A stretch of 64,000 nucleotides of DNA from contig JBLNCF010000012.1 in NCBI GenBank assembly GCA_050260455.1, positions 58,236 to 122,235 on the forward strand. Reading direction: 5' to 3'. This DNA is from Bacillota bacterium. Its GTDB lineage: Bacteria; Patescibacteriota; Minisyncoccia; Phycocordibacterales; Phycocordibacteraceae. The notes under the pieces were generated by a model, which did not search any database, was not told the origin of the DNA, and saw only the letters and a list, made by a program, of their open reading frames with translations. Below, piece by piece: positions 4,053 through 24,200 of the stretch; within the stretch, counting starts at the first letter, position 1; every line of letters begins with the position of its first letter. The position numbers and the translations under genes are program-made.

Positions 4053-4152
4053 ATTTCGCTCTCCACACGAGACCTGTGACGCTTCGTAAGAGCGCTATAC
4101 TTAATACGTCCTCTTACCAGGTACAGGTCCTTCCTTATCCTTCACACGCCCC

Positions 4153-4407
4153 ATGTCACACACTACGAAGATCGTGCTCGCGGTCGCCGTTGTAGCCGTC
4201 GTGCTCGCCGCGGCTTTCTTTTACTGGCAGCAGCACCAGACCGCCAATCAGCAGAACGATAGTGAGGTCACTACGCTTCCGAGCGGTTCCAGTACGACAG
4301 ATTCTTCTCTTGAAGATGACTTGGCAGCCATCGATAGTCAGCTTCAAGCATCGGCAAGTGATACTGCCGATGCAACCGGAAGCATCGATGCTGCAGCAGC
4401 TCAATAA
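4153..4407 (+). CDS. small membrane-anchored hypothetical protein
   Basis: N-terminal TM (IVLAVAVVAVVLAAAFFYW), Ser/Thr/Asp-rich tail; antisense ORF 4156..4404 judged spurious. Confidence 0.4.
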   Translation: MSHTTKIVLAVAVVAVVLAAAFFYWQQHQTANQQNDSEVTTLPSGSSTTDSSLEDDLAAIDSQLQASASDTADATGSIDAAAAQ

Positions 4408-4426
4408 CGTTTAGGCTCTCTCAATT

Positions 4427-5362
4427 ATGAAAAAGACTCACCTTATTACTTCATCGCTCGGTATTGCTCTGTTGCTCGCGTCGGCTGCACCGGCACTTGC
4501 GGACGAGGGTTCCGATGATTCTGTAACTGCCTCCAGCTCCTTGCGCGTAGAGATGCATGACAAGCAGGATGGCAAGCGTCCGCTATTTATGCTCGGCATG
4601 CCGAAGCTGAAGTTCATGGCTTCAACGTCCGCCCACATGGAACGGAAGGGGCAGGACGACGAAGATGCAACAAGCACGGACGATCGTATCGAGAACAAGG
4701 GCCAGCAGATGCATATCGAGAAAATGGACGAGCATGCATCTGTTTCCATCGACAATCGCATTGAGGCGCTCCAGAAGCTCTCGGCACGTCTTGCTTCCAT
4801 CAAGCTCCTCCCTGCAGATGTGCTCGCGAAACTCCAAGCATCCATCACGTCCGAGATCGATGCGCTTACTGCCCTGAAGACGAGCATCGGCACCACGACC
4901 GCAACTACCACCCTCAAGGCTGATCTTAAGGCCCTAGAGAAGGTGACCAAGGAACACCTGTTCGCCGAGCCGAAGGCACGTATTGCCGCAGCAGCGTCTC
5001 GTATCAATGCAGTCGTAACGCAGCTCACCGCGCTAGCAGGGAAGCTTGAGACTCGCATCAGCGATGCGCAGAAGGCCGGCATTGATGTGACTGCAGCGAC
5101 CTCTGCGCTCACTGACCTTAAGGCTAAGATTGCGGACGCAAAGATCCAGGCGGATGCCGCAGTTTCACTTACTGCCGATCTCACGGTGAGTACGTCGACC
5201 CAGGCGACCAATAAGGCCACTATGAAAACTGCCGGCCAAAAGCTAGTGGTTGCCCAGAAGGACCTTGCTGCCGCACGCCATGATGCTGCAACCATCATTG
5301 GAATCGTGAAGAAGGGTAACGGGGAAGACCACGCAACGACTACGGCTACCACCACACCGTAA
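4427..5362 (+). CDS. secreted hypothetical protein, Ala-rich coiled-coil-like
   Basis: Signal peptide MKKTHLITSSLGIALLLASAAPALA; intrinsic terminator 23 nt downstream; antisense ORF 4438..5355 rejected. Confidence 0.5.
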   Translation: MKKTHLITSSLGIALLLASAAPALADEGSDDSVTASSSLRVEMHDKQDGKRPLFMLGMPKLKFMASTSAHMERKGQDDEDATSTDDRIENKGQQMHIEKMDEHASVSIDNRIEALQKLSARLASIKLLPADVLAKLQASITSEIDALTALKTSIGTTTATTTLKADLKALEKVTKEHLFAEPKARIAAAASRINAVVTQLTALAGKLETRISDAQKAGIDVTAATSALTDLKAKIADAKIQADAAVSLTADLTVSTSTQATNKATMKTAGQKLVVAQKDLAAARHDAATIIGIVKKGNGEDHATTTATTTP

Positions 5363-5384
5363 ACTCCAACTCCACCCTAGTTAT

Positions 5385-5422
5385 CAGAACCGCCGCCCAT
5401 ATGGGCGGCGGTTCTTTTGCTT
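5385..5422 (+). terminator. Rho-independent terminator
   Basis: Perfect hairpin CAGAACCGCCGCCC-ATAT-GGGCGGCGGTTCT followed by TTTTGCTT. Confidence 0.7.
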
Positions 5423-5488
5423 GGTTGAAAAGAGATTTGATTTCCAGTATTGTCATAAAACCGTGGCCGCTTCGGCGGCCCACGGTAT

Positions 5489-5559
5489 TGCGGGATCGTC
5501 TAATGGTAGGACGCAACACTCTGGATGTTGTTATCTAGGTTCGAGTCCTAGTCCCGCAG
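5489..5559 (+). tRNA. tRNA-Gln (anticodon CTG)
   Basis: Cloverleaf by eye: acceptor TGCGGGA/TCCCGCA, anticodon stem CAACA/TGTTG with loop CTCTGGA, T-arm CTAGG-TTCGAGT-CCTAG; CCA not encoded. Confidence 0.7.
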
Positions 5560-5602
5560 CTCGTTAAGGCACCATATTTCTTCCAAATGCTATTGTTATG
5601 CA

Positions 5603-6073
5603 ATGGAAAAGTTCGAGCATAAACGTCCCGTAGGAAACTCAGAGCGGTTCGGAAGTGAACACAGACTTGAATTGATGATAGATGGCGAAAAGGTGGGGTA
5701 TGCAGCTTTCGAATACCATTCACGTCCATTTCCGCTTTATTACATTAATATCTTGGCCGTCGGTAAAGATGGAAACCAAAAGGATTGGGGCAAAGGCTAT
5801 GCTGGAAAGATTATGGCGTACCTTGAAGATATGCTTGATAAAAGCGGAAAGGCAGGGATTCTTATCGATGCTATAGATGAGAACTCTCCTGCCAAGGGAA
5901 TGTATGAACGACGAGGCTGGCATCCTGTTCCTGGTACTGCATACTTGGCGTACAACATTCCAAACTCAGCTTCAATCGAAAGATTAAAGGAGTATCAGCC
6001 ACGCACTGAAAACGATAGTCGAATGAACAGGTTGTGGCAGACGAGGGAGATTGGAGAATTACCTAACAATTAA
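5603..6073 (+). CDS. GNAT-family N-acetyltransferase
   Basis: Acetyl-CoA motif A-like NQKDWGKGYAGKIM; lower local GC. Confidence 0.55.
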   Translation: MEKFEHKRPVGNSERFGSEHRLELMIDGEKVGYAAFEYHSRPFPLYYINILAVGKDGNQKDWGKGYAGKIMAYLEDMLDKSGKAGILIDAIDENSPAKGMYERRGWHPVPGTAYLAYNIPNSASIERLKEYQPRTENDSRMNRLWQTREIGELPNN

Positions 6074-9949: not shown

Positions 9950-10651
9950 ATGAGGACCCACCGCGAACTTCACACCGCTCCGATTGCGGGCAAGCTGAAT
10001 TGGCTGCGTGCGGCGGTGCTGGGTGCAAACGATGGCATCGTCTCACTTGCTGCACTTGTAGTTGGAGTTGCCGGAGCATCCGTCCCGTCAGGAGTGATAT
10101 TTGTGACGGGTATCGCGGGGCTTCTGGCAGGTGCCTTTTCCATGGCGGTGGGTGAGTACGTATCGGTGAGTAGCCAACGCGATGCCGAACGAGCGCTGCT
10201 CGATAAGGAACGCTACGAGCTTGAGCACTATGCCGGACCCGAACTCGATGAACTCACCTCCCTCTACGAAAAGAAAGGACTTAATCCTGGCACGGCGCGT
10301 ACTGTGGCCGAAGAACTCACTGCCCATGATGTCTTTGCAGCGCACGCGGAAGCTGAGCTTGGTATTAACCCTAAAGAACTCACGAATCCGTGGCATGCTG
10401 CCGGCGCGTCAGCGGCTGCGTTTACGGTAGGTGCCCTTATTCCGCTCCTCGCAATACTCATTCCGCCCGCGCCGCTTCGCATACCGGTCACATTCGCCGC
10501 AGTGCTCGTAGCTCTTACAATTACTGGGGTAGTAAGCGCGCGTGCCACCGGGGTAAAAACCATACCCGCAACACTTCGGGTACTTATCGGTGGTATCCTT
10601 GCGATGGCCATCACCTTCCTGATTGGGCGGCTGTTTGAAGGAGCGGCATAA
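9950..10651 (+). CDS. VIT1/CCC1-family iron/manganese transporter
   Basis: LRAAVLGANDGIVS and GEYVSVSSQRD signatures; five TMs; stop 3 nt before the sigma factor gene. Confidence 0.8.
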   Translation: MRTHRELHTAPIAGKLNWLRAAVLGANDGIVSLAALVVGVAGASVPSGVIFVTGIAGLLAGAFSMAVGEYVSVSSQRDAERALLDKERYELEHYAGPELDELTSLYEKKGLNPGTARTVAEELTAHDVFAAHAEAELGINPKELTNPWHAAGASAAAFTVGALIPLLAILIPPAPLRIPVTFAAVLVALTITGVVSARATGVKTIPATLRVLIGGILAMAITFLIGRLFEGAA

Positions 10652-10653
10652 GC

Positions 10654-11217
10654 ATGGAAACAGACGAGTCGCTTGCTAGTCGGGTTCAGCAGGGAGACGA
10701 TCAGGCGCTCGGGGAACTCATAGAACGTTACGAAAAGAAACTATTACGGTACGGTTCTCGTTTCTTGGGGAGTCAGGGAGAAGATGCAGTTGTACAAGCG
10801 GTCCAGGACATTTTCATTCGGGTTTATCAGAACATTGCATCATTCGATACGCGTCAACGGTTTTCGCCCTGGATTTATCGGGTTGCACACAATACCTTTG
10901 TGAGCATTCTTCGCCAACGGACGCGTCAACCCGTGTACGGTATTGATTTCGATAGCTTCTTTCCGCATCCGGTACATGAAGATTCCGAGCGCCGAGAGAA
11001 AGAACATGCAGAAATCCGCGTAGTAGTAGAGGCGGCACTCTCCTCCTTGTCTGCCGCACATCGTGAAATTATCGTCCTATACTATTTTGAGGAACTCTCG
11101 TATCAGGAAATCGCCGATGTGCTCCGTATCCCGGTCAGCACGGTAGGGGTGCGGCTATCGCGCGCTCGTGAACGGCTGAAGCGAATCCTTCCCGAGAGTT
11201 CTGAACTGCCCCTATGA
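10654..11217 (+). CDS. ECF-type RNA polymerase sigma-70 factor
   Basis: Sigma region 2 (IFIRVYQNIASFD...FSPWIYRVAHN) and region 4 (YYFEELSYQEIADVLRIPVSTVGVRLSRARERL). Confidence 0.85.
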   Translation: METDESLASRVQQGDDQALGELIERYEKKLLRYGSRFLGSQGEDAVVQAVQDIFIRVYQNIASFDTRQRFSPWIYRVAHNTFVSILRQRTRQPVYGIDFDSFFPHPVHEDSERREKEHAEIRVVVEAALSSLSAAHREIIVLYYFEELSYQEIADVLRIPVSTVGVRLSRARERLKRILPESSELPL

Positions 11218-11927
11218 CGGACCACCCCAACAATTCGATACGAAGTACCGTACTTGAAAAGATACGGGAGGGGACGGTGCGTCGCCGACCGCGCGCGTAT
11301 TTTGTGGCGCGCATCGTAGCAACCGTGCTGGTAGCTATACTCCTCCTTGCCACGTCGGGGGTCGTCATTAGTTTCATTCTTTTCAGCTTGCATGAGAGCG
11401 GTGAACAGTTCTTGCTCGGGTTCGGTACCCGGGGAGTGCTCACATTCCTCACACTCTTTCCGTGGACCTGGGGAGTAGGTGCTGTGTTCCTCATCATCAT
11501 CCTCGATTGGCTCATACGTGGATTTCGGTTTGCGTATCGCATACCGCTCATGCCTATCTTCCTTGGCACTGTCGTGGCTAGCGTAATTCTCGGCATCGTA
11601 TTAAACCTCACACCGCTACACGCCACGCTTCTTCGGGAGGCGCATGAGCGTCAACTACCCGTTGTTGAAGATGTGTACGGCCATATATTTGATTCACACG
11701 AGCGGAAGGGAGTGTATCGCGGCTCCGTGATTTCTGTAGCGACAAGCACCTTCACACTTCAACACAATGATTGGGATCATGATCCCGATGACGGCATATT
11801 CACCATATTTGTGTCCCCGGAGAGCGGCATCCTGTTGCCACGTGTTGGAGACAAGGTGTTTGTTCTAGGAACGCTCGAAGAGGGGGTGATAGAAGCAAAG
11901 AACATCCAGATTTTCACATCTCGGTGA
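11214..11927 (+). CDS. putative membrane anti-sigma factor
   Basis: ATGA overlap with the sigma factor stop; cytoplasmic N-term, three TMs, extracytoplasmic C-term; call rests on position and topology only. Confidence 0.45.
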   Translation: MTDHPNNSIRSTVLEKIREGTVRRRPRAYFVARIVATVLVAILLLATSGVVISFILFSLHESGEQFLLGFGTRGVLTFLTLFPWTWGVGAVFLIIILDWLIRGFRFAYRIPLMPIFLGTVVASVILGIVLNLTPLHATLLREAHERQLPVVEDVYGHIFDSHERKGVYRGSVISVATSTFTLQHNDWDHDPDDGIFTIFVSPESGILLPRVGDKVFVLGTLEEGVIEAKNIQIFTSR

Positions 11928-11978
11928 GGATGTAATAAAGTCAGAAATCGTGCGTACTAAAGGGGTACCAGATACCCT

Positions 11979-12527
11979 ATGAAGAAATTCATCATCTCCG
12001 CTCTGTTTTTGCTTGGATTTGGATCGTATGCGATTTATAACCACACATCAGCCAAGCAGGCGAATGGCCTTGGTGTCGATGTAGCAACCACCACTTCGCT
12101 TGCTGTCGTGCCAACGGAAACCGACTCGACCTCTGCCGCTCCATCGAAACCCGTATCAAGCGCTCAACCACCAACGCGGCCGGTGACGAAGCCGTCAGCT
12201 CCGACTCCTGCACCTGTTCCAGAAACTCCGCGTCCTACGGGGAAGTATGTGGATGGCGTATATACGGGGAATGCGGCAGATGCGTATTACGGATATGTGC
12301 AAGTGCGCGCCACCATTTCGGGAGGTAAGTTGACGAATATTGCATTCCTGCAGTATCCAAATGACCGTCAGACTTCCGTCTATATTAGCCAGCAGGCTCT
12401 TCCGATGCTTCGTACCGAGGCGATAGAAGCTCAGAGCGCGAACGTCGATGGTGTCTCCGGTGCCTCGGATACCAGCCAAGCATTCGTCGAGTCACTCGGT
12501 TCTGCACTTGCTCAAGCCAAGGCATAG
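11979..12527 (+). CDS. secreted or anchored FMN-binding domain protein, likely ApbE substrate
   Basis: Signal/anchor MKKFIISALFLLGFGSYAIY; Pro/Thr linker; FMN_bind-like domain with flavinylation-type motif DGVSGASDTS. Confidence 0.7.
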   Translation: MKKFIISALFLLGFGSYAIYNHTSAKQANGLGVDVATTTSLAVVPTETDSTSAAPSKPVSSAQPPTRPVTKPSAPTPAPVPETPRPTGKYVDGVYTGNAADAYYGYVQVRATISGGKLTNIAFLQYPNDRQTSVYISQQALPMLRTEAIEAQSANVDGVSGASDTSQAFVESLGSALAQAKA

Positions 12528-12531
12528 CGGT

Positions 12532-13275
12532 ATGCGCGAAACACGCTCAATTATGGGCATGCCGGTGGTGCTTGAGATTGTAGGAGGAGCTCCTTCTTCG
12601 GAGTATGACGGAGTTTTCTCTTTCCTTCGAGAGGTGGATGAGCGCTTTAGTACCTATAAGGAGGGTAGTGAAGTGTCGCGGATCAATCGAGGAGAAATTG
12701 AACCGGATGCCTATAGCTCCGAACTTACAGAAATACTTGAACGGGCTGAAGAAACGAAACGCATAACAGGCGGATACTTTGATGTATATACACCTGATGG
12801 AACACTCGATCCTTCTGGACTGGTGAAAGGATGGGCAATCCAGCGTGCGGCCGAACTCCTACGCAGTCGTGGACTCGATCAATTCTATTTAGAGATTGCT
12901 GGAGATATCCAGACGAGCGGCATGAATCGCGATGGAAAAGAATGGAGTATTGGCATTCGTAATCCATTCGCATCCGAGGAGGTGGTGAAGGTGGTGTATC
13001 CGCATGGCAGGGGTGTCGCCACCTCGGGTACCTATGTACGAGGCGCACATATTTATGATCCGCATGCGGGCACGACCGCATCTGATGCGTTCGTGAGCCT
13101 CACCGTGATCGGTCCTAACGTATATGAGGCAGATAGGTTGGCGACGGCCGCATTTGCCATGGGTGAGCGGGGTATCGAATTCCTCGAGCGGTTCGGGGGA
13201 TGCGAAGCATACGCCATTACTCCCTCCGGCACCGCTGTTATGACGAGCGGATTTGAAGCATACACTTCTCTATGA
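12532..13275 (+). CDS. apbE: FAD:protein FMN transferase (ApbE family)
   Basis: Start MRETRSIMGMPV 4 nt after the previous stop (track ORF 12448 begins inside the upstream gene); ApbE-like GGYFDVYTPDG, WSIGIRNP, TSGTY. Confidence 0.8.
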   Translation: MRETRSIMGMPVVLEIVGGAPSSEYDGVFSFLREVDERFSTYKEGSEVSRINRGEIEPDAYSSELTEILERAEETKRITGGYFDVYTPDGTLDPSGLVKGWAIQRAAELLRSRGLDQFYLEIAGDIQTSGMNRDGKEWSIGIRNPFASEEVVKVVYPHGRGVATSGTYVRGAHIYDPHAGTTASDAFVSLTVIGPNVYEADRLATAAFAMGERGIEFLERFGGCEAYAITPSGTAVMTSGFEAYTSL

Positions 13276-14771
13276 TGCGCTTCATTGACTCGATCCTGAA
13301 CCGGATAACGATGTACCGGCTCGTGTTGTATGAACTGCTGATGCTTCTCGGTGTAGCTGTCCTGTTCGGTGCATTCCATTTCCTGCCGTACAGTCCGCTG
13401 TACATTGCGTATTCTGCGATTCTTATATTCGCAGTGACCTGGATCACCAATGAGATCTTCGCACTTGCATTCGATGCGCCTTCAAATCCAGAGTCCACCT
13501 ACATCACGGCGCTCATTCTCGCGCTCATCATCTCGCCGCCGCAAGCGTTCTGGGATCCGCACTATTTCATGCTTGCAGGCTGGGCTGCAGCACTTGCCGC
13601 TGCTTCCAAATATATTTTTGCGATACGTCACAAGCATCTCTTTAATCCAGCGGCGTTTGGTGTCGCCCTTCCGGCGCTTACGCTCGGCGTGGGTGCAAGT
13701 TGGTGGGTAGGTACGCTTTCTATGCTGCCGTTCGTAACTGTCGGGGGCTTCCTCGTCGCACGAAAGATACGGCGTCTTGACCTCGTACTTGCTTTCGGGG
13801 CATCGGTCGTGGTGACCATTCTGTTTTTGAGTGCGGGAGAAGGTTCTGGTGCACTGCATATTGTGAAGCAGGCGCTCCTGTATTCTCCGGCGGTGTTCTT
13901 GGGTACGGTCATGCTTACCGAACCACTCACTATGCCACCAGGGCGTTTTAACCGGGTGTGGTATGCGGTTCTGGTAGGATTCCTCTTTGCGCCTGAAGTG
14001 CACATTGGCACGTTCTATTTCACTCCCGAACTCGCATTGCTTGCAGGAAATATCGTTGCATACGTGATGAGTCCAAAAGGGAAGCATACCCTTACCCTCG
14101 TCGACCGCGTTCGCACTTCTTCGGGCACCTATGAGTTCGTATTTCAACCCGATGAGCATTTCGCATTCTCTGCGGGCCAGTATCTCGAGTGGACGCTCCC
14201 GCACCAACACGCGGATAGTCGTGGTATCCGTCGATACTTCACCATTGCCTCTGCTCCGTCTGACCCTTTTATACGGCTCGGCGTTAAATTCTATGATCCG
14301 ATGAGTACCTACAAAGGGCGATTACTCGCCATGAAGAAGGGTGACATTATCATTGCTTCGCAGGTGGCAGGAGATTTCGTTCTTCCATCCGATTCTGGTC
14401 GCAAGCTAGCGTTCATTGCGGGAGGTATTGGCATTACCCCTTTCCGTAGCATGCTGAACGAGTTGCGCGCCCGGGGTGAAAAGCGCGACATTGTTTTACT
14501 GTATTCCAATCGAAGTCGGCAGGAGACTCCGTATCTTGCCGACCTAGCGGAAGCCGAAAGCGAGCTTGGCATCCAGGTAGTTCCGGTATATACGGATACA
14601 GAAGGCCAACTTACGCCCGCACTCATTGCTCGCTATATACCTGATTACCAAGAACGCTTCTTCTATCTTTCTGGACCTCAAGGAATGGTGACCGGGTTCG
14701 ACCGGATGCTCCGTTCGATCGGTGTCTCCTGGCATCGCATCAAGAAGGACTACTTCCCTGGTTTTGCATAG
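13272..14771 (+). CDS. fusion oxidoreductase: RnfD/NqrB-like membrane domain plus FNR-type FAD/NAD(P)H-binding domain
   Basis: ATGA overlap with apbE; membrane half has HLFNPAAFG and MLTEPLT (compare RnfD NPFNPAM, ILTDPVT) but SPAV where RnfD has SGAT; C-half has RYFTIAS and GGIGITPF. Confidence 0.65.
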   Translation: MMRFIDSILNRITMYRLVLYELLMLLGVAVLFGAFHFLPYSPLYIAYSAILIFAVTWITNEIFALAFDAPSNPESTYITALILALIISPPQAFWDPHYFMLAGWAAALAAASKYIFAIRHKHLFNPAAFGVALPALTLGVGASWWVGTLSMLPFVTVGGFLVARKIRRLDLVLAFGASVVVTILFLSAGEGSGALHIVKQALLYSPAVFLGTVMLTEPLTMPPGRFNRVWYAVLVGFLFAPEVHIGTFYFTPELALLAGNIVAYVMSPKGKHTLTLVDRVRTSSGTYEFVFQPDEHFAFSAGQYLEWTLPHQHADSRGIRRYFTIASAPSDPFIRLGVKFYDPMSTYKGRLLAMKKGDIIIASQVAGDFVLPSDSGRKLAFIAGGIGITPFRSMLNELRARGEKRDIVLLYSNRSRQETPYLADLAEAESELGIQVVPVYTDTEGQLTPALIARYIPDYQERFFYLSGPQGMVTGFDRMLRSIGVSWHRIKKDYFPGFA

Positions 14772-15146: not shown

Positions 15147-15668
15147 ATGGAAGACTCTCGCGGCTTTACGCTTATCGAACTACTCATTGTCATCGCCATC
15201 ATAGGAATCATTTCATCCGTAGTGGTGGCATCACTCGTCCTCACACGGCCCCGTGCACGTGACGCGGAACGGCTTTCAGATCTCCGTCAAATACGCATTG
15301 CACTTTCGTTGTACTACTCGACCTATAAGAAATTTCCGTACTGTCTGTCTGGGTGCACCGGAGCGCTCGACACTACTTCATATATGCCGAATGTACCCAA
15401 GGATCCGAAAACTGGCAGGGATTATAACTATGCCGCGTTAGCTCCTGGTTGTCTGACCTATCATCTCGGAGCACCGCTTGAAGATAAGAGTAACCGTGCT
15501 CTTCTCACTGATTCGGATGCGCCCTCTCAAGCACGCTGTTCTGATCAGAGCAGCTCTGATTTCTCTGGTACGTCCTACTACACTGGGGGTGTGTGCACGG
15601 GATCGACCGGGACTCCGCAGCCTACGACGGCAGGGAATGGTGAGAATTGCTATGATATCGTTCCCTAA
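15147..15668 (+). CDS. type IV pilin / pseudopilin (prepilin N-terminal cleavage/methylation domain)
   Basis: GFTLIELLIVIAIIGI class III signal at the N-terminus. Confidence 0.75.
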   Translation: MEDSRGFTLIELLIVIAIIGIISSVVVASLVLTRPRARDAERLSDLRQIRIALSLYYSTYKKFPYCLSGCTGALDTTSYMPNVPKDPKTGRDYNYAALAPGCLTYHLGAPLEDKSNRALLTDSDAPSQARCSDQSSSDFSGTSYYTGGVCTGSTGTPQPTTAGNGENCYDIVP

Positions 15669-15671
15669 TAT

Positions 15672-16061
15672 ATGACCCGCACCATCGCCATCATCCTGCT
15701 CGTTCTCGCGCTCATTGGCGCATTGATCTGGATATCAGAGCGCCAGGAATTCGGTAATGACGCGAAGGCCCCGTCGGTATCTCCTGGCTGCAGAGTGGGG
15801 GAGTGTCCGTTTGAAATCACCGAGGCGGATTCAGGTAAAACATTTACCTATACTGTCACGTCCCGCTTCACGCTCATTCTTGATGAAACGAAGCACCCGC
15901 AGCAGGAGCTTTCCTGTGTGCCTGCAGGTATCTTAGGAAGTATCTCGAACATTCCTGCGGTTTCGCCGCCCTCTTATGCGGCACGGTTTGAAGGAGTTGC
16001 TCCAGGTACCTGTACGTTTTCGGATCGGGATTTTACGGCCACCATTACCATCGTGCCGTAG
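15672..16061 (+). CDS. membrane-anchored hypothetical protein (possibly pilus-associated)
   Basis: N-terminal TM; starts 4 nt after the pilin gene. Confidence 0.4.
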   Translation: MTRTIAIILLVLALIGALIWISERQEFGNDAKAPSVSPGCRVGECPFEITEADSGKTFTYTVTSRFTLILDETKHPQQELSCVPAGILGSISNIPAVSPPSYAARFEGVAPGTCTFSDRDFTATITIVP

Positions 16062-16117
16062 ACGGTTCAGGGAAGCGTCAGATTGCCTAGGTGAGAATGC
16101 AGTGATAGAACCGATAT

Positions 16118-17587
16118 ATGGATTCGAAGAATAAATACCCGATTTTAGGCGGCATCTTGCTCGCCATGTTGCTTGCGGCCATGGATCAGACCATCGTTTC
16201 GACAGCAATGCCGCAGATCGTGCGGGAGCTTAACGGTCTTGAGCACCTCTCTTGGGTGTTCACGGCATACATGCTTGCAAGCACCCTCACCACCCCTATT
16301 TACGGCAAGCTCTCCGACATGTTCGGACGTCGTACGCTCTATATTGTCGCCATCGTCATTTTCCTTGGCGGTTCTATCCTTTCCGGTGCGGCGCACTCGA
16401 TGCTGCAGCTCATTCTCTTCCGCGGGTTGCAGGGTATTGGTGGCGGAGCCATCATGGTGACCTCTTTTGCGCTCATTGCGGATGTCTTTCCGCCTGCAGA
16501 ACGTGGCAAGTACCAAGGCATCATTGGTGCTGCCTTTGGTATCGCTTCCGTGGTGGGCCCGCTTCTTGGTGGATGGATTACCGATAATGTGTCGTGGCGT
16601 TGGGTCTTCTATGTGAATATTCCGCTCGCCATCCTCGCCATTGTCGTCTTGCTTGCCACTTTGCCACGCACCGAGCGTCATCATGACAACGCCAAGATCG
16701 ACTATCTCGGCGCATTCCTGCTCATGACGACGCTCATGCCGTTCCTGTTGGCAATGGTGTGGGGTGGAAGCACCTACGCCTGGGATTCGCGAGAGATACT
16801 CGCGCTCTTCGGTCTCTCGTTCATCTCACTCTTCTTCTTCGTGTGGCGTGAGGAAAGTATTCCGCAGCCCATTCTCTCGCTCCGGCTGTTCGGCACAAAA
16901 GCGTTCAGCCTGTCCGTCATCACTACCTTCCTTACGGCTGCGGGCATGTTCGGTGCGATTGTGTACATTCCGCTCTTTGCGCAGACGGTGCTCCATGCCT
17001 CTGCGACTGATGCAGGTCTTGCACTTACGCCCATGATGATTGGTATTGTGGTGGCCTCGACCACAAGCGGGCAGATTATTTCGCGAACAGGGAAATATCG
17101 GTCACTTCTCATTGGTGCACTCTTCGTAGCCACCGTTGCGATGTTCTTTTTTGCTACGGTCTCGACCGCGACGACATCGTGGGGACTTGCGGTGCGTATG
17201 GTGTTCCTTGGTCTTGGTCTTGGTCCTACCATGTCCGCCTTCACGCTCATTGTGCAGAGCGCCTTTGATGCAAAGCGCACGGGAGAAGTAACCGCCACCA
17301 TTCAAATGTTCCGTTCCATCGGTAGCACCATCGGCACTGCGGCCATGGGCGGCATCATGAACGCAGCGCTTGCCTCGGGTCTCGCTGCTGGCATGACCCA
17401 GCCGGAAGCGTTCACGCACGCTATGGATCGAGTCTTCTTCATTGGAAGCTTCTTCCTTCTCGCTGCGTTTCTTTTGGTCTTCTTTATCCCGCAGATACAA
17501 CTGCGTCGCTCGAACCGTCCGGTACTCGAAGAGATCGGTATCGAGATGGAAGAGGACTTCGCTTCGCCCGTCAGTCCACGGCAGTAG
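16118..17587 (+). CDS. MFS transporter, DHA2 (EmrB/QacA) drug:H+ antiporter family
   Basis: 14 predicted TMs; MFS motif [10 protein letters not shown]. Confidence 0.85.
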
Positions 17588-17623
17588 CTGCTCCTGCGGG
17601 CAGGTAGGGAGTACCATGCAGCT

Positions 17624-17881
17624 ATGAGCTACACGGTATATCTCCTTCAGTGCTCCGACGGTACTTTCTATACCGGCATCACGACGGACGTGGTACGTCG
17701 ACTCAAGGAACATAATGAGTCCTCCAAAGGAGCTGCATACACGAGAACACGTCGGCCGGTACTGCTCGTGTACGAAGAGCCGTGTTCTTCGCGTAGCGAT
17801 GCCTTGAAACGGGAATATGCCATCCGTACGTTACCTCGTGCACAGAAGGAGGAGCTCATGAACGCAACGGCTGGTCGGTAG
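17624..17881 (+). CDS. GIY-YIG nuclease family protein
   Basis: YTVYLLQCSDGTFYTGITTDVVRRLKEHN. Confidence 0.8.
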   Translation: MSYTVYLLQCSDGTFYTGITTDVVRRLKEHNESSKGAAYTRTRRPVLLVYEEPCSSRSDALKREYAIRTLPRAQKEELMNATAGR

Positions 17882-18614
17882 GGCACCAGTAGCTCCATCG
17901 CCCGCGCCGGCCAGTCTTCTCTTTGGTTAGTTTGCCACCACAGTAGGGGCACGTGCCGCGTCCATGAACCTTCAGGTTTTTCCGTAGCACAAACTTCCGG
18001 CGCCATGCGAGGAATTGCTTGGAGAACGCTCGTGTCGTATCCACCAATTCCTCTCGCTGTTTCTTTGTGAGCGCACCTATCTTGGTGCGTGGGTTCTGCC
18101 GGACGATGGAGAGCACTTCGTTTTTGATAATATTCCCGACACCGGCAAAAATGTCCTGATCAAGGAGCACGTCTGCTACTTCCTCGTCGCCTTGTTTCGC
18201 GAGGAGCGCGAGCACTTTCTGTCGATCCCATTTCCGTGAGAGAATATCGATACTGAAATCGTAATCTCCTTTAGCGTTCTTCGATTCGATCGGTTTCACC
18301 GAGCAGTTGAACATGAGCACTTCGCCGTTTTCGAATGAAAAGGAAAGTCGTGGCTCGCGCGCACGGCGATAATCGCCGGTCACGACCACGCCTTCAATCT
18401 CCGCTTCATACGTCCCGAAGAGCATGAAATGGATGCGCACGGCTTCATCGGGGAACTGGAATACCAAATGTTTGCCCCACGAGAATATGTCCGTTACTTC
18501 TTTGCCAACATATCGAGCAGCTCCCACTTTCGTATTGCCGCTCGCTTCACGTACTATCCTGCCGCGAAGCGGACGCATCTGCTCTTCCGCAAGCTTGAGC
18601 GAGGGACCTTCCAT
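17856..18614 (-). CDS. Fpg/Nei-family DNA glycosylase / AP lyase
   Basis: H2TH region and C-terminal zinc finger CPYCGGKL...WCPTDQ; N-terminus MEGP not canonical PELPEVE, so Nei-like rather than classic Fpg. Confidence 0.75.
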   Translation of the reverse strand: MEGPSLKLAEEQMRPLRGRIVREASGNTKVGAARYVGKEVTDIFSWGKHLVFQFPDEAVRIHFMLFGTYEAEIEGVVVTGDYRRAREPRLSFSFENGEVLMFNCSVKPIESKNAKGDYDFSIDILSRKWDRQKVLALLAKQGDEEVADVLLDQDIFAGVGNIIKNEVLSIVRQNPRTKIGALTKKQREELVDTTRAFSKQFLAWRRKFVLRKNLKVHGRGTCPYCGGKLTKEKTGRRGRWSYWCPTDQPLRS

Positions 18615-18654
18615 TAACGGGACGGTACGCTCATTGGCCTGAATCCGGAATGAA

Positions 18655-19995
18655 TCACGAGACCTCGCCTAGATACGGAAGAGAGAAGAGCTTTTTCATG
18701 CCCCGGCCGGAGAAGCGTTGTGGAGCGTTTTTCCGGAGCGACGCCGATGTGCCGTACTCGACATGCTGTTCAGCGTCAGTTTTCTCCACGATCGCTTGCA
18801 TAGAAGAGGCGAGAAAGATCGTATGCCGTCCGAACCGTTCCGAGAGTTCATCCACCTTCTCGAAGATCCGAGCCTTACCTGCGATTTTTGCTGGATCCGT
18901 AAAAAGATCAGGCTGGCGCTCTGCGTGCTCCGCAAGATGTGAAAGGGTTACCCCGGTGGTGCGATATGTTTCGCCCGGCCGCACGAGATCTTTCATGTGG
19001 CGCTCGATGACCGGCAGAATATCAGAGGGAACATTCGTGGGTCGTTCGAGGGTAAGTTCGCACACGCGGTATCGGAATGTTTCTTGGGTTTTCAGGAAGA
19101 ATGAAATACGTCTCGCAGACAATTCAAACCGTCGCGCTTTGGCACAGGCACCCTCGACATTCTTCGATAGTTGCGCGAAGAGAAACACGGGATCTTGCGA
19201 AGCGGGACGGAAAGTACGTGTTTTCTGAATGGACTGGTAGGTCTCCTTGGGATCGGTAACCAACTCATGGACTAGAGTCCCGTTCAACTCCTTCCATATG
19301 TCATGGATAGGTGCGGTTACGCGTTCTTCCACCCACCCTGCGGGCTTCCTCGCGAAATCAAGCGCGCTACGGATACCGAGCGTATTCAAGTAGCGCGCGG
19401 TATTCGGCCCAATACCCCAAATCTTATCGACGGACGTACTTGCCAGGTATCGATCCTTCTCGGACAGCGGGATGGCGGTGAAGCCGTTTGGCTTTCTATA
19501 CTTCGAGCCGACCTTGGCGAGCACTTTCGTGGGTGCGAGACCGACACCGAAGGTGATGTTGAGTTCGCGGGTGAGATCCGCCTGGATGTCACGAGCGATG
19601 GCCTCGTAAGATTTATGGAATTTGCGACGCAGGCCGGTGAGCTCACCGAAGCATTCATCGATACCGTATTCCTCTACGATGGGCGTATAGCGGCGCATGA
19701 TTGCGTACATACGCTCCGAGTAGAGTCCGTAGGTCTCATAATCCGATTCGATAACCACGAGATCGGGACAGATGCGCTTTGCTTCCGCGAGCGACACACC
19801 ACGCTTCACGCCCAACGCTTTAGCTTCATACGTGGCGGCCGATACGATACCGCGTTCGGCACCGGTGGCTACCGGTTTTCCTTTTAGGGCAGGGTTCTTT
19901 GCTACCTCGCAGGCCGCGAAGAAAGAGTCACCATCCACGTGGATGATGGCGCGTGGGTAATAGTAATTCTTTTCCCATCCGACCTCTGTCGGCAT
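18655..19995 (-). CDS. dinB: Y-family DNA polymerase (DinB/UmuC-like)
   Basis: N-terminal IIHVDGDSFFAACE catalytic motif; 446 aa; 4 nt downstream of lexA on the same strand. Confidence 0.85.
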   Translation of the reverse strand: MPTEVGWEKNYYYPRAIIHVDGDSFFAACEVAKNPALKGKPVATGAERGIVSAATYEAKALGVKRGVSLAEAKRICPDLVVIESDYETYGLYSERMYAIMRRYTPIVEEYGIDECFGELTGLRRKFHKSYEAIARDIQADLTRELNITFGVGLAPTKVLAKVGSKYRKPNGFTAIPLSEKDRYLASTSVDKIWGIGPNTARYLNTLGIRSALDFARKPAGWVEERVTAPIHDIWKELNGTLVHELVTDPKETYQSIQKTRTFRPASQDPVFLFAQLSKNVEGACAKARRFELSARRISFFLKTQETFRYRVCELTLERPTNVPSDILPVIERHMKDLVRPGETYRTTGVTLSHLAEHAERQPDLFTDPAKIAGKARIFEKVDELSERFGRHTIFLASSMQAIVEKTDAEQHVEYGTSASLRKNAPQRFSGRGMKKLFSLPYLGEVS

Positions 19996-19999
19996 AGCA

Positions 20000-20566
20000 T
20001 TAGTACTTGCGAACGACGCCCGTCACTACCGCCTCGATATTGAGCGCACCTTTCGGATAGATGGGCTTGAACGCTGCGTTGGCGGGGTCGAGATAGAATC
20101 GATCGCCGCTCTTGCGAAGGTACTTCATCGTGTACTCGCCATCGACCGACGCGATGACTATCTGACCAGGCTTATACGATGCACGACGTTCGACGATAAC
20201 CAGATCGCCCGGGCAGATGCCGGCATCAATCATGCTCTCGCCCTTTACCTTGAGAATGTAGGAGTTCTCCTTGTTTGGAGTGAGGAACTCATCGAAATCC
20301 ATGACATCGAGGAGTTCTTCTTCAGCGGGGGAGGGGAAACCTGCCTCGACCAGACCGAGGAGAGGGACACCTACCAGGGTGCGACCGGGTGCGAGACGTC
20401 CTTGCTTGTCCTTCTTTACGACCCCGTCCTCGACCAGCTTATTGATGAGCTTATAGACGGAGTTCTTTGAAGAAAGACCTGTCGCTTCCATGATCTCCTT
20501 GTAGCCGGGCATGCGCTTATGCCGTTCATAAAAACCGACAATCTTCCGTTTGTAGCTGTCGTACAT
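20000..20566 (-). CDS. lexA: LexA repressor (S24 peptidase)
   Basis: Winged HTH (GYKEIMEATGLSSKNSVYKLINKL), Ala-Gly cleavage-site-like VEAG, Ser/Lys dyad region (GESM...MKY); start moved to MYDSYKR because the track's GTG start at 20596 lies inside the SOS box. Confidence 0.85.
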   Translation of the reverse strand: MYDSYKRKIVGFYERHKRMPGYKEIMEATGLSSKNSVYKLINKLVEDGVVKKDKQGRLAPGRTLVGVPLLGLVEAGFPSPAEEELLDVMDFDEFLTPNKENSYILKVKGESMIDAGICPGDLVIVERRASYKPGQIVIASVDGEYTMKYLRKSGDRFYLDPANAAFKPIYPKGALNIEAVVTGVVRKY

Positions 20567-20573
20567 GCTTACT

Positions 20574-20604
20574 ATGATAGGTGAACTAGGGTTCACCAGT
20601 CAAG
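20574..20604 (-). promoter_or_regulatory. putative lexA promoter TTGACT-N18/19-TATCAT with the SOS box in the spacer
   Basis: Minus strand reads TTGACTGGTGAACCCTAGTTCACCTATCATAGTAAGCATG; -10 ends about 7 nt before the ATG, implying a leaderless or near-leaderless transcript. Confidence 0.45.
20581..20596 (-). promoter_or_regulatory. SOS (Cheo-type LexA) box GTGAAC-TAGG-GTTCAC
   Basis: Perfect GAAC-N4-GTTC palindrome about 17 nt upstream of the lexA ATG. Confidence 0.7.
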
Positions 20605-20616
20605 TGGTGCGGTGGA

Positions 20617-21243
20617 TTATGTCTCGGTAGCGGGGGAGGAGCGTTGCTTCTTTTTGCGTGCACGCAGATATGCCGATAGAACATATCCGCCCACGCCGAT
20701 GGCGAGCGCGACACCGATACCGAGAGAGGTGAGCTTTGCATCCTGCTTCCATGCCGCACCGATGAAATAGCCTGCAGCTAGATAGGCAGCAGTGCACAGG
20801 GCATTTCCCAACAGATCGAAGAAGGCGAATTCGACGACGCGCATTTGTGAGAGACCGGCAATAGCATTTACGGGTGTGCTTGCGACACCGATAAGGCGGG
20901 AAAGAAAAACGGTTGCGCGCGGGTGGCGCTTGGCGTAGCCCTCGATGCGATTTGCGAATCGGTTACGCTCAACGAATCGGCGATACCCAGCCTTCTTGCC
21001 GAGCCGCCGTGATATCTCAAACACAATAATGTCGCTCATGGTGCTTGCAGCAGCGGCCGTGAAGAACGATATGAAAAAACTTAAATAGTGCGCACGCGCG
21101 AGTGCTCCTACGCCGATGAGAATGATGCCGATCGGTAGGAAGCTTGTGACTTCGCTTGCTGCGACCAAAAGAAAAAGCGCGCTGTATCCGTACGCGAGAA
21201 TGTACCCAATATCGGTCGAAGGCGTGGGGAGTGCCATCGACAC
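20617..21243 (-). CDS. DedA/TVP38-family membrane protein
   Basis: DedA-like TM arrangement with conserved G and R residues (RLIGVASTPVNAIAGLSQM). Confidence 0.7.
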   Translation of the reverse strand: MSMALPTPSTDIGYILAYGYSALFLLVAASEVTSFLPIGIILIGVGALARAHYLSFFISFFTAAAASTMSDIIVFEISRRLGKKAGYRRFVERNRFANRIEGYAKRHPRATVFLSRLIGVASTPVNAIAGLSQMRVVEFAFFDLLGNALCTAAYLAAGYFIGAAWKQDAKLTSLGIGVALAIGVGGYVLSAYLRARKKKQRSSPATET

Positions 21244-21277
21244 CAGTATACGTCAGCAGGATGAGTCCCGAGTGAGG

Positions 21278-24200
21278 CTATTCCTCCGAACTTCGTGCGA
21301 AACGGGCAAGCACCTCCTTCCCGGGCCAGCGGTAGTAGAGAACGGGAATGAGGACGAGTGTGAGAAGGAGTGAAAAGGCGAGACCGAACATGATGGCGAC
21401 GGCAAGCGGTCCCCAGAATGGCGACACCAGAGCGAGCGGCACCATACCGATCACGGTCACAACGGTGGTGAGGAGGATGGGGCGTAGGCGGGTGGATGCT
21501 GCCTCGATCACCACGTTCTCAAGGGACATGGTCTCGTCTTCACGATGGATACGAGCGATCGAGTCCATGAGAATGATGGCGTGGTTGATAATCACGCCCG
21601 CAAGCGCGATGACACCGAGCATGGAGGTGAGGGAGAGCGGCTGTCCGACGAGCGTAAGACCGGCAAATACACCCACCAACGAAAGCGGAATGATGGAGAG
21701 GAGGTAGAAGGATTGACGGAATGAATTGAACTCAAGCACCAGGATGGAAAGCATAAGCGCTGCACCTGCGATGAGTGCAATAAAGAGTTCAGTGAAGGAT
21801 TTGCCAATGTCTTCTGACGCACCGCCGAGCTTCATGGTCACCCCCGTGCCGAGCATCGCGGGAGTAAAACGTTTCTCAAAGGCACGGGTCGCTTCAAGTG
21901 CGTTGGTCTTCGGACCCACATCTGCGGTTACGGTCGCGATGCGATGTCCGGCTTCGTGATGAATGGCCGTCTGTGCCGCTGCGTAATGGACGTCAGCGAT
22001 AGTGGAAAGGGGTACGGGACCCTTGGCGCCTGGAATGGTGAGTGCACGCACCGCATCAATATTGGCATGGGTGGTCTCGGAAGGATCAGCGTACGTTGGA
22101 TTGAGATCAAGCTTCACCCGCACCTCGATATCATTCGTACCGGTGCGAATAGAGGTCGCCTTGGCACTATAGAGGGCGGTGCGAAGCGTATCAGCAACCA
22201 CTGCAGGTGAGACTCCCATCTCGGCTGCTTTTGCACTATCAAGTGCGACCACAAACTCTGCGCTGGCATCCTTGGTGCTGGAATCGATGTTCACGACACC
22301 GGGGATATCGGAGAGAGTGTGTGCGGCACGATCTGCAGTGGCCGAAAGCGCCCCCAGGTCATCACCCGAGAAGGTGATGGTGATAGGGGAGGAGGAAGGA
22401 GGACCACCTTGCGGCTCACCGACGGTGATGGAAGCGGATGTAATGCCGGAAAGCTCCTTACGCAGTTCGGTCACGAACTTCGCGCTCGGGATATGGTGTT
22501 TCGGAAGATTCACCGTGATATTCGCGACATTGCTTCCCGAAGAGGGACCGGTAAGACCGCCGCCGGCAAAGGAACTACCAGAACCAACCTCGGTCACGAA
22601 CGAAGCGACGTGCTTGTCTCCATACAACACTTCTTCAATCTGACGTACTGCAAGATCGGTTTCAGAGAGTTCTGTACCCTGCGGTTTCTCAATCTCTACG
22701 TATACGTAATCTGAATCAGCACCGGGGAAGAAAATGGATTTAAGAAGTCCGGTGGAGGGAAGTGCAAGAGCAATGAAGAAAAGCGCGATCATCGCTGCAA
22801 TGAAGCGGTTTTGACTTTTGGTGTCATGGAGAAGCTTACGCAAGAACTGCTGATACCACGCACGAGCTTTCACGTTGTACTCTTCCTGGCGCGCGGCGAG
22901 CGGGTTGTATGAATCTTTCACGAAGAAGACAGAAAGAATCGGTACGAATCCAAGTGCGACGAAGATGGACGCCAGGAGAACGAAGATAACAGTGAATGGA
23001 ATCGCGGCGAGGAATTTACCGACGATACCCGACAGGAAGAAGAGTGGGATGAACACCACGATGGTAGTGAAGGTACCGGCGATGAGTGGCCAGGCGTATT
23101 CGCGAATAGCAGCGATTGCTGCTTCATGGCGATCACCATATTTATGCAGACGGGTATGAAAGGCTTCGACCACCACGATACCCGAGTCGACCAAAATACC
23201 GATAGCAAGGATGAGCGAGAACAACGAAACATTATTGAGGGTGTTGCCTGAAGCCATGAGGCCGATGAACGCAACCAAGAAAGAAAGAGGAACCGAAGCG
23301 GCTGCTACCAGTGACTCGCGCCATCCGAGGGTGACCAAGAGTACGAGCATGACGAGGATAACCGTCTCGATACCGGCGCGTCCCAGTTCAGTGAGACTCT
23401 TATTCACCTCTTCCGCTCCGTTATAGGAGATAACGGTTTCAGTTCCGGCGAGCATGCCGGACTGCAGGTCCGTAAGTTTCTTCTCGATAGCATGCCCGGT
23501 CTCGACAATGTTGCCTCCGCGGCTTTTAAAGATAGTGAGCGTGAGGGAAGGTTCTGCCGGTTTGCCTCCTACCGACACGCGCGAGAACGAAGTGGGGTCC
23601 TCAAGGCCATCGACGACATCGGCCACGTCGCGCACGTGGAGAGTCGAACCACCGGGACCTGCAATAGCAACGTTCGCGACGGCCTCGGTTGAAGGTACGC
23701 CCGAATCAAAACGCACCGCGTAGCGGATACCGTCCACGGTGATGGAGCCAGCCGGGGAGGCGACGCCAGCAGCGCGAATTGCGTTCGTAATATCGGAAAG
23801 TGAGAGGCCATACTCGCGCAAGCGATCCTCTCTGGCGATGACCTGCACCTGGCGCGCACGCACGCCAGAGACAGTCACTTTGGAAACACCGGGCACACGC
23901 TTCAGCTCTTCGGAAAGGGAGTCACCGAGCGCCGTCAATTCAGCAGGCGCCAAATCGCCGGAAACCGATACCACCATGATGGGCGAGTCGGCAAAGTTCA
24001 CGTCGGATACTACCGGTGCCTGCGCTTCAGCGGGAAGTTCGGGACGTACCTTATCGACTGCATCCTTCAAGAGCTGGATCGACTTATCAATATCTGCAGA
24101 GGAATCAAACTCAACTGATACTACGGAAATACCCTCGCCAGATGTAGAAGTCACCTTCGAAACATGTTCGACGGGGAGCACACCGCTCTCGATTTTGTCG

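Follow-up and report, generated by a model that had tools for sequence, protein, structure and literature searches.

The locus examined here raises the question of whether three adjacent genes of a CPR bacterium could pass NAD(P)H-derived electrons through the membrane, and on which side of that membrane the flavin of the exported subunit is attached. Within the window (the whole 64,000-nt stretch of DNA that was analysed), the forward strand encodes an NqrC/RnfG-like FMN_bind protein of 182 aa (positions 11979 to 12527), the FAD:protein FMN transferase ApbE (247 aa; 12532 to 13275) and a 499-aa fusion of an NqrB/RnfD-like with an FNR-type domain (13272 to 14771). As a preliminary description of the sequence had proposed, these genes form a co-directional and coupled set, with a 4-nt gap between the first two and an ATGA overlap joining the last two, and no pseudogene features were seen in any of the three. 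The neighbourhood survey advised in that description showed that most of the 80 related CPR loci examined share this gene order. Relatives of the fusion are encoded in at least 567 species genomes among those scanned, as full-length homologues of 47–67% identity, and their alignment uncovered dozens of invariant residues in both domains. Homologous clusters were also found on two plasmids, one of them high-GC and the other, carrying a close homologue of the cluster, from a cultured Mesorhizobium, strain B2-1-1 (plasmid pB2-1-1, NZ_CP083955.1).

The FMN_bind protein starts with MKK and a hydrophobic anchor (aa 4–20), continues with a linker rich in Pro, Thr and Ser (about aa 30–90) and ends in the FMN_bind domain (aa 103–177), which is its single domain; a lipobox is lacking. 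PF04205 matched the protein at 28.5 bits (cut-off 22), and the best match among solved structures was chain 8p2a, an FMN-binding domain (E 1e-12). The stretch DGVSGAS at aa 157–163 (positions 12447 to 12467, plus strand) fits the ApbE acceptor motif published as D-x-x-[S/T]-G-A-[S/T] (PMC12052999) and aligns to DAVSGAT in 8p2a, with Ser163, 19 residues before the C-terminus, as the predicted site of FMN attachment. The earlier assignment of an FMN_bind protein with a flavinylation-type motif is thus upheld by both the profile match and the canonical motif, and the [ST]GA[ST] context, which a proper alignment might have dissolved, is kept along with the anchor in all 69 aligned homologues. In each of these 69 proteins, basic N-terminal residues precede a hydrophobic helix, after which comes a linker rich in Pro, Thr and Ala, a layout that, according to the positive-inside rule, places the FMN_bind domain outside; export signals were judged here from sequence alone. 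The homologue encoded on the high-GC plasmid carries a twin-arginine signal plus a lipobox, the mark of an exported lipoprotein. Anchors of the CPR and Mesorhizobium proteins are of the MKK type.

The fusion combines a membrane domain of about 10 helices (aa 1–268; positions 13272 to 14075, plus strand), with FNPA and TEP motifs, the latter reading TDP in RnfD, and an FNR-type FAD/NAD(P)H-binding domain (aa 271–499; 14082 to 14768, plus strand), with the RYFTIAS and GGIGITPF motifs and a C-terminal DYFPGFA. PF00175 matched aa 381–475 (E 1.5e-9). PF03116 yielded no match at E ≤ 10 with either the full fusion or aa 1–263, the membrane domain matched nothing when scanned directly against Pfam and NCBIfam, and a single-sequence PDB search with the fusion recovered FNR domains only. 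The identity of the membrane domain was obtained by a family profile, a family-wide Pfam scan and a fold search, which assigned it to the NqrB/RnfD fold. About a sixth of the close relatives of the fusion likewise have no PF03116 match, and the missing match is a sensitivity limit of the Pfam model, not an absence of homology. Of the profile searches suggested beforehand, those with PF04205, PF02424 and PF00175 were positive and that with PF03116 was not; the claim of an RnfD/NqrB-like domain and an FNR-type reductase on one polypeptide stands, and the membrane domain did not fall into an unrelated family.

We also inspected the fusion for cofactor sites. The loop after the FNPA helix, where RnfD/NqrB have their flavinylated Thr, is 13 residues long in the fusion versus about 35–65 in RnfD sequences. 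Ser143 (GASWW) is unlikely to be a cryptic NqrB-like flavinylation site: Ser or Thr occupies this position in 110 of 120 family sequences (about 92%), N, G, V or E in the other 10, and the upstream Asp and Ser/Thr are absent. Position 143 belongs to an outer-face loop that reads GA[ST]WW where the Ser/Thr is kept. No Cys is conserved in the fusion, and the membrane domain has a single invariant His, H122, whose loop is predicted to lie on the cytoplasmic side. The ferric-reductase and cytochrome b families of Pfam gave no match, and bis-His haem ligands of the PF01794 or PF01292 type are absent. Since the membrane domain has neither conserved Cys nor His pairs, its cofactor, if there is any, is presumably a non-covalent flavin; NqrB uses non-covalent riboflavin and FMN.

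Comparison with Na+-NQR and RNF evidenced that the membrane domain is about 40–100 residues shorter than NqrB/RnfD (7xk3_B, 8ahx_D, 7zc6_D), that the NqrA/D/E/F and RnfA/B/C/E partners are absent from the scanned genes and that the FNR domain is fused directly; whereas electrons follow a semicircular, ion-pumping path in those complexes, their flow is presumed here to be outward and unidirectional. No other Nqr/Rnf families were detected among the genes scanned between positions 9047 and 17587, nor among the downstream genes in the related locus L081, and the six-subunit operon (NqrA-F or RnfA-E,G, with Fe-S subunits) is represented solely by its NqrB/RnfD-like and NqrC/RnfG-like parts. This architecture, which the preliminary description did not recognise, is already on record: Méheust et al. 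2021 (eLife, PMC8238504) and Huang et al. 2024 (mSystems, PMC11334425) describe it as the "NQR/RNF-like system", with 127 clusters counted in 2021, an occurrence mainly in Actinobacteria and CPR and a complex modelled for Ktedonobacter racemifer. The parts are the same, namely an anchored FMN_bind protein, an NqrB/RnfD-like domain fused to PF00175 and an adjacent apbE. For the class, strict conservation of the NqrB/RnfD site for covalent FMN is not seen (Huang 2024, PMC11334425). The class allows up to five genes of distance and asks for at least one export signal; here, the FMN_bind and ApbE genes lie immediately upstream of the fusion, and the FMN_bind protein has a predicted signal. Without a PF03116 match, however, the fusion escapes the published operational definition, and the census based on this model probably undercounts the family. 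The searched literature yielded no functional or biochemical test of any member, and the class is known from genomics and AlphaFold models only. The locus adds an ordinary CPR member to this known class, not a new principle.

Collectively, we regard it as likely that the triad is a CPR two-subunit Nqr/Rnf-like transmembrane electron-transfer system equipped with a dedicated flavin transferase. NAD(P)H would reduce the FAD of the cytoplasmic FNR-type domain, and the NqrB/RnfD-like domain would carry the electrons across the membrane, presumably via a non-covalent flavin, to the ApbE-attached FMN on Ser163 of the anchored FMN_bind protein at the outer face. Ser163-FMN would in turn reduce an extracytoplasmic acceptor, with iron as the leading candidate because of a recurrent VIT1 neighbour. 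The members of the VIT1/CCC1 family that have been characterised export Fe2+ from the cytosol, which is not an obvious fit to a reading in terms of iron uptake. The electron route anticipated in the preliminary description equals the published model, in which an extracytoplasmic flavoprotein receives the electrons of NAD(P)H by way of the membrane domain (PMC8238504; PMC11334425), but plain extracellular flavinylation does not fit a leaderless ApbE unless an extra step is added. In Listeria extracellular electron transfer, an ApbE-type enzyme likewise flavinylates a surface-tethered FMN_bind protein that relays electrons of cytoplasmic NADH outward; Listeria-type Ndh2, EetA/EetB, two-domain PplA and the DmkA/B quinone branch were not found among the scanned neighbours. 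MsrQ-like, PepSY-like and NOX-type proteins with a C-terminal PF00175 are alike in that a cytoplasmic FNR domain is fused to a membrane conduit, but their conduits are di-haem cytochromes, whereas the membrane domain here is devoid of conserved His pairs. Such fusions often adjoin apbE, FMN_bind and VIT1 genes.

The ApbE assignment was corroborated by PF02424 (E 3e-44, 152 bits) and by alignment to Vibrio cholerae ApbE (6nxi), with ATSGTY and ADRLATA present. The counterpart of the AHIYDP His in chain 6nxj, which we take to be the H257G active-site mutant, is Gly. The enzyme is compact and leaderless, its start, MRETRSIMGMP, coinciding with the domain's first strand; no signal peptide, lipobox or hydrophobic N-terminus was found, and the in-frame stretch upstream is not signal-like. 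All 65 intact CPR copies of the linked ApbE and both plasmid-borne ones proved leaderless, and the enzyme is therefore predicted to be cytoplasmic, although its FMN_bind substrate is exported. We rejected the idea that FMN_bind and ApbE make up a frameshifted or fused single protein that would export ApbE, given that every locus has a stop codon between the two and that the open frame upstream of ApbE varies from 0 to 166 codons and contains no hydrophobic stretch. The leaderless linked ApbE is without mention in Méheust et al. 2021 and Huang et al. 2024 (PMC8238504; PMC11334425). It differs from Listeria FmnB, an extracellular lipoprotein with FAD supplied by an ECF transporter (PMC9973259), in having no export signal. 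Conversely, the signal-less ApbE of Klebsiella pneumoniae is cytoplasmic and serves a soluble fumarate reductase (PMC12052999), a substrate in its own compartment, whereas the substrate here bears an export or anchor signal.

A leaderless ApbE paired with exported substrates, one of them with a twin-arginine lipoprotein signal, hints that flavinylation may precede export. Extended to the whole class, the proposal that ApbE works in the cytoplasm and that the FMN_bind subunit is exported already bearing covalent FMN is a tentative one, which we hold to be possible rather than probable. Export would then follow the Tat route where a twin-arginine signal exists, as in the high-GC plasmid homologue. 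The 64-kb window, a small part of the genome, contained only an unconvincing match to a TatA motif, in a 142-aa frame. If pre-export flavinylation held true, an FAD exporter would not be needed. The consistent lack of an ApbE leader turns the site of flavinylation into a testable question.

Upstream of the triad, and on the same plus strand, lie genes for a VIT1-family Fe/Mn transporter (positions 9950 to 10651; PF01988, E 1.3e-67), an ECF sigma factor (10654 to 11217; Sigma70_r2, Sigma70_r4_2 and Sigma70_ECF Pfam matches) and a polytopic membrane protein of 237 aa (11214 to 11927). The sigma gene starts 2 nt past VIT1, with which it probably shares a transcription unit, and overlaps the next gene by ATGA. 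The 237-aa protein matched no family; translationally coupled to the sigma gene and co-occurring with it in 12 loci, it is a candidate anti-sigma factor. In these 12 loci a close sigma orthologue (47–69% identity) followed by the anti-sigma candidate is located directly 5' of the triad, while weaker sigma matches (24–31%) occur in nine more, often on the opposite side or strand. An ECF-type promoter-like motif, TGTAATAA-N14-CGTA, maps to positions 11931 to 11956 (plus strand), 23 nt before the FMN_bind start codon, and TGAAATAA-N13-15-CGT[AG] is found in 12 related loci, directly 5' of FMN_bind, among them loci without an adjoining sigma gene. In roughly 1 Mb of loci, about 13 matches to the strict form were observed where base frequencies predict ~1.4, and most of them sit directly upstream of FMN_bind. 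A generic scan for sigma-70 promoters and terminators between 8700 and 16200 retrieved nothing exceeding the shuffled expectation. The promoter-like motif and the neighbouring sigma gene suggest that transcription of the triad may depend on the sigma factor, and the ECF sigma and promoter association is not mentioned in the class papers (PMC8238504; PMC11334425). VIT1, reported in 6 of 127 published clusters (about 5%; PMC8238504), is also near the triad in the related loci L001, L035 and L039, and it is divergent in the Mesorhizobium plasmid cluster. An ABC ATPase, an HlyD-like protein, a 2-hydroxyacid dehydrogenase, a P-type ATPase and a G6PD-like enzyme recur loosely as further neighbours. 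Clustering of the neighbourhoods beyond the triad revealed no neighbour consistent enough to name an electron acceptor.

The compartment of ApbE also bears on whether all redox chemistry might be cytoplasmic, with the triad acting as a mini-NQR, that is, an NAD(P)H reductase of quinone or another membrane acceptor whose FMN_bind domain remains inside. NqrB contributes to the quinone site of NQR, and the lack of a leader in all 65 CPR copies of ApbE and the two plasmid clusters would suit such an arrangement. The cytoplasmic ApbE of K. pneumoniae fumarate reductase offers a precedent (PMC12052999). The N-termini of all 69 FMN_bind proteins nevertheless place the domain outside by the positive-inside rule, and the high-GC plasmid homologue bears its twin-arginine signal and lipobox. 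CPR bacteria are, to our knowledge, generally without quinone biosynthesis, and we deem this cytoplasmic arrangement improbable. Less probable still is a transporter role for the membrane domain, in which the FNR domain would reduce what is taken up, such as a ferric chelate or a flavin; Amt and urea channels are structural relatives of the RnfD/NqrB fold. With homologues of just two among six NQR/RNF subunits, the locus could evoke a functionless, decayed remnant of the canonical operon; this exceedingly remote reading is effectively refuted by conservation, namely of the full-length fusion with its invariant residues across the species genomes scanned and of the triad order, and by the intact appearance of the genes.

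CPR/Patescibacteria are generally regarded as fermenters without electron-transport chains. A membrane module that oxidises NAD(P)H and reduces an outside acceptor, encoded in 567 or more of the species genomes scanned, would bear on their redox balance, on iron handling and perhaps on interaction with hosts. The plasmid cluster of Mesorhizobium (NZ_CP083955.1) provides a tractable host for experiments that are impossible in CPR. If flavinylation before export proved true, CPR bacteria would possess a self-contained, all-flavin wire, switched on by an ECF sigma factor, through which NAD(P)H-derived electrons would be discharged to the exterior, with iron as a possible recipient.

The triad lies on the + strand, where ORF analysis delimits genes for an FMN_bind protein of 182 aa (11979-12527; PF04205, 28.5 bits, cut-off 22), a 247-aa ApbE (12532-13275; PF02424, E 3e-44) and a 499-aa fusion protein (13272-14771; NAD_binding_1, PF00175, E 1.5e-9, aa 381-475). 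These Pfam matches bear out the FMN_bind, ApbE and NAD(P)H-binding domain calls of the preliminary description, and all the motifs that it quoted were found at the expected residues. The mechanical ApbE ORF opens at 12448; choosing the ATG at 12532 leaves a 4-nt gap. The junction sequences display this spacer and then the ATGA overlap, as previously described. The N-terminal 263 residues of the fusion returned no Pfam match even at E<=10 and no NCBIfam match. A database search with the fusion retrieved thousands of relatives, the best 120 being full-length (~505 aa, 50-67% identity). Among 61 aligned relatives, PF00175 was matched in all 61, PF00970 in 46 and PF03116 (NQR2_RnfD_RnfE) in 51 (best E 1.1e-9), and the missing match in the window protein reflects a sensitivity limit of the PF03116 model. 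Searching PDB sequences with a membrane-domain profile yielded RnfD of Azotobacter vinelandii (8ahx_D) as the sole match (E 0.0011, T(D/E)P region), hhalign aligned the domain to RnfD across the same half (E 2.5e-5), and the AlphaFold2 model derived from the 61-sequence alignment was confident (pLDDT 88.7, pTM 0.82). Collectively, the PF03116 matches in relatives, the RnfD profile match and this model indicate that the NqrB/RnfD-like domain had been called correctly. The 100%-identical NCBI MAG protein is annotated 'ferredoxin--NADP reductase', its membrane domain having been overlooked.

Sequence comparison placed the flavinylated Thr of RnfD after the FNPA helix and ahead of the following TM helix (GMTGAT in A. 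vinelandii, GVTTAT in C. tetanomorphum), whereas the corresponding interval of the fusion comprises no more than a loop of 13 residues (aa 139-151, TLGVGASWWVGTL). Because basic stretches (RHKH and RKIRR) flank it on both sides, this loop is predicted to face outward by the positive-inside rule. Position 143, though not invariant, is occupied by Ser or Thr in 110 of the best 120 relatives. Residues 141-145 (window 13692-13706) form a [SG]-A-[ST]-W-W loop at the predicted outer face, with Ser/Thr at the third position in 92% and an invariant Trp-Trp, which recalls the ApbE acceptor but without the remainder of the motif. The invariant columns of the fusion contain no Cys and a single His (H122), which makes Fe-S clusters and bis-His haems unlikely, so that the only plausible cofactor in the membrane would be non-covalent flavin.

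At least 567 fusion relatives were confirmed (one genome per species), nearly all named matches being Patescibacteria. Of the best 80 of these loci, 69 contain FMN_bind and 66 contain ApbE; the usual order is FMN_bind-ApbE-fusion, the genes being only a few bases apart. In one sub-clade ApbE lies a few kb away, usually on the other strand. As order and linkage recur among these 80 loci, both the fusion gene and the triad as a unit are genuine. The architecture, which the preliminary description did not recognise, is indeed present but not new: it is that of the 'NQR/RNF-like systems' defined by Méheust et al. 2021 (PMC8238504), who found VIT1 in six clusters; an AlphaFold-multimer model of the complex from Ktedonobacter racemifer was presented by Huang et al. 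2024 (PMC11334425). Our literature searches returned no paper on the class beyond these two, and no biochemical test. The proposed NAD(P)H-to-membrane-to-extracytoplasmic-flavoprotein route coincides with the published, predicted mechanism. The earlier interpretation of the triad was correct, and the triad adds one more member to a class already defined by computation. The identical MAG protein is labelled 'Bacillota bacterium'; since all named close fusion relatives (50-67% identity) among the best 120 are Patescibacteria, this label probably stems from an error in binning or classification.

The cluster also occurs in two plasmid records. That of Mesorhizobium sp. B2-1-1 (pB2-1-1, NZ_CP083955.1, 183272-196069), a cultured alphaproteobacterium, encodes an FMN_bind protein of 281 aa, an ApbE of 240 aa (5282-6004 in the locus, beginning MGMPITV) and a fusion of 503 aa that matches PF03116 (39 bits) and PF00175 and whose membrane domain is 49.8% identical; cytochrome b561 and VIT1 genes are divergent, with PepSY and two-component genes close by. 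This cluster may represent horizontal transfer of the module. The second record (NZ_CP081947.1, plasmid pDR48-1, 'Pseudomonas sp. DR48') encodes an FMN_bind-like lipoprotein, an ApbE and a fusion. The FMN_bind-like protein gives a weak, sub-threshold match to PF04205 (19 bits; cut-off 22), and its N-terminus (...ALRRTLYAGIAGLSLAGTVAGC; ALRRTLYAG...VAGC) resembles a lipobox-containing twin-arginine signal; the Pfam match of the ApbE (4078-4950 in the locus) starts at residue 15, leaving no room for a leader. This 'plasmid' is unannotated, 19 kb long and, on visual assessment of its ORFs, which are rich in Ala, Arg and Gly, seems very GC-rich; it encodes an apparent arginyl-tRNA synthetase. Overall it resembles a piece of an actinobacterial chromosome more than a plasmid of Pseudomonas.

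The FMN_bind protein opens with MKK and a hydrophobic stretch, continues with a linker rich in Pro, Thr and Ser, and ends in a C-terminal domain; its closest solved relative is the FMN-binding domain 8p2a (E 1e-12). Its DGVSGAS aligns with DAVSGAT of 8p2a and conforms to the D-x-x-[S/T]-G-A-[S/T] motif published for ApbE, Ser being one of the accepted attachment residues (PMC12052999), in keeping with the flavinylation-type motif noted previously. Both [ST]GA[ST] and the N-terminal anchor are kept in 69/69 FMN_bind homologues adjoining fusion genes. ApbE aligns with V. cholerae ApbE 6nxi (E 1e-26) and keeps ATSGTY, ADRLATA and the His aligned to Gly of chain 6nxj, which we take to be the active-site mutant H257G. 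Its N-terminus, MRETRSIMGMP, already lies at the first strand of the fold, and inspection of the in-frame stretch upstream of its start uncovered no hydrophobic segment. All 65 intact CPR homologues, including copies away from the FMN_bind gene, share an M[KR]xx[RK]xxMGMP start (a 66th copy, cut off by a contig end, is left out of this count). Typical ApbEs are exported lipoproteins. Every intact fusion-linked ApbE in the window, the 80 CPR loci and the two plasmid clusters is devoid of signal peptide or lipobox, and the FMN_bind substrate in these clusters always bears an N-terminal anchor or signal. Judging from these N-termini, ApbE appears to be cytoplasmic and its substrate exported; the known cytoplasmic ApbEs all serve substrates that are themselves cytoplasmic (PMC12052999), and the leaderless trait is not mentioned in the literature found on the class (Méheust 2021; Huang 2024). 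The simplest reconciliation would be flavinylation before export, which would be helped by the acceptance by ApbE of unstructured seven-residue tags, best at protein termini (PMC12052999), by the location of Ser163 19 residues from the C-terminus, and by the Tat components reported in Paceibacteria (PMC9166423). Most CPR anchors among the 69 homologues, however, carry KK, not RR. A TatA motif search within the 64-kb window, a small part of the genome, gave only an unconvincing match in a 142-aa frame.

Upstream of the triad, also on the + strand, VIT1 (9950-10651) is followed after 2 nt by an ECF sigma factor gene (10654-11217), and this by a gene for a 237-aa polytopic membrane protein (11214-11927; ATGA overlap) that matched no family in Pfam and NCBIfam scans. 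The sigma/membrane-protein pair recurs upstream of the triad in 12 related loci, and the membrane protein is a candidate anti-sigma factor. Its C-terminal part (...GDKVFVLGTLEEGVIEAKNIQIF) resembles that of a 150-aa single-pass protein, likewise without family assignment, encoded at the same place upstream of FMN_bind elsewhere (e.g. L028 5080-5589, L034 5359-5799). The 51-nt spacer before FMN_bind contains TGTAATAA-N14-CGTA (11931-11956, +). In 12 other loci, TGAAATAA-N13-15-CGT[AG] occurs 20-65 nt upstream of the FMN_bind ORF, the sites including L001 5052, L002 5686, L003 5640, L004 5676, L005 5541, L006 5625, L017 6394, L025 4750, L027 6240, L047 5418 and L064 2578. In L003 the motif precedes FMN_bind though an extra gene intervenes after the membrane protein, and in L001, L015 and L017 it is present with the sigma gene not adjacent. 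About 13 strict motifs were seen versus about 1.4 expected from base frequencies (our own calculation, ~1 Mb of loci); the looser pattern actually scanned gave 32 matches versus 11.2 in shuffles. ECF promoters combine an AAC-like -35 element with a CGT -10 element. The conserved motif resembles such a promoter, and transcription of the triad may be sigma-dependent, an association not mentioned in the literature found on the class (Méheust 2021; Huang 2024). In L002 a second copy (~4350-4375, minus strand) is oriented away from the ECF sigma gene, suggesting that this sigma factor also has a target that is transcribed divergently.

VIT1 adjoins the triad in the window, in L001, L035 and L039, which represent four distinct CPR arrangements, and in the Mesorhizobium cluster, in agreement with the involvement of iron hinted at in the literature. 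An uptake role does not readily follow, as the VIT1/CCC1 proteins that have been characterised remove Fe2+ from the cytosol. Looser neighbours, identified by eye from sequence rather than by family scan, comprise a D-2-hydroxyacid dehydrogenase (10/80 loci, often directly upstream), a heavy-metal P-type ATPase (10/80) and a G6PD-like (glucose-6-phosphate dehydrogenase-like) enzyme (7/80), which in the representative is an apparent fusion to 6-phosphogluconate dehydrogenase; examples lie at L008 5276-6463, L032 5269-6282 and 9821-12061, and L058 3849-6233. These enzymes serve NAD(P)H production and metal handling. Neighbours in at most 10 of 80 loci do not identify the acceptor. Gene calls at 15147-21600 of the window include a type IV pilin-like protein (N_methyl), MFS and RND transporters, a GIY-YIG protein, an Fpg/Nei-type glycosylase (H2TH), and a Y-family polymerase (IMS) adjoining a LexA-like S24 peptidase; a small cluster of DNA-damage-response genes is among them.

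Overall, the NQR/RNF-like class appears much more widespread in CPR than first reported and shows a puzzling apparent mismatch in compartment between ApbE and its substrate; the cultured Mesorhizobium with its plasmid triad provides an experimentally tractable host.
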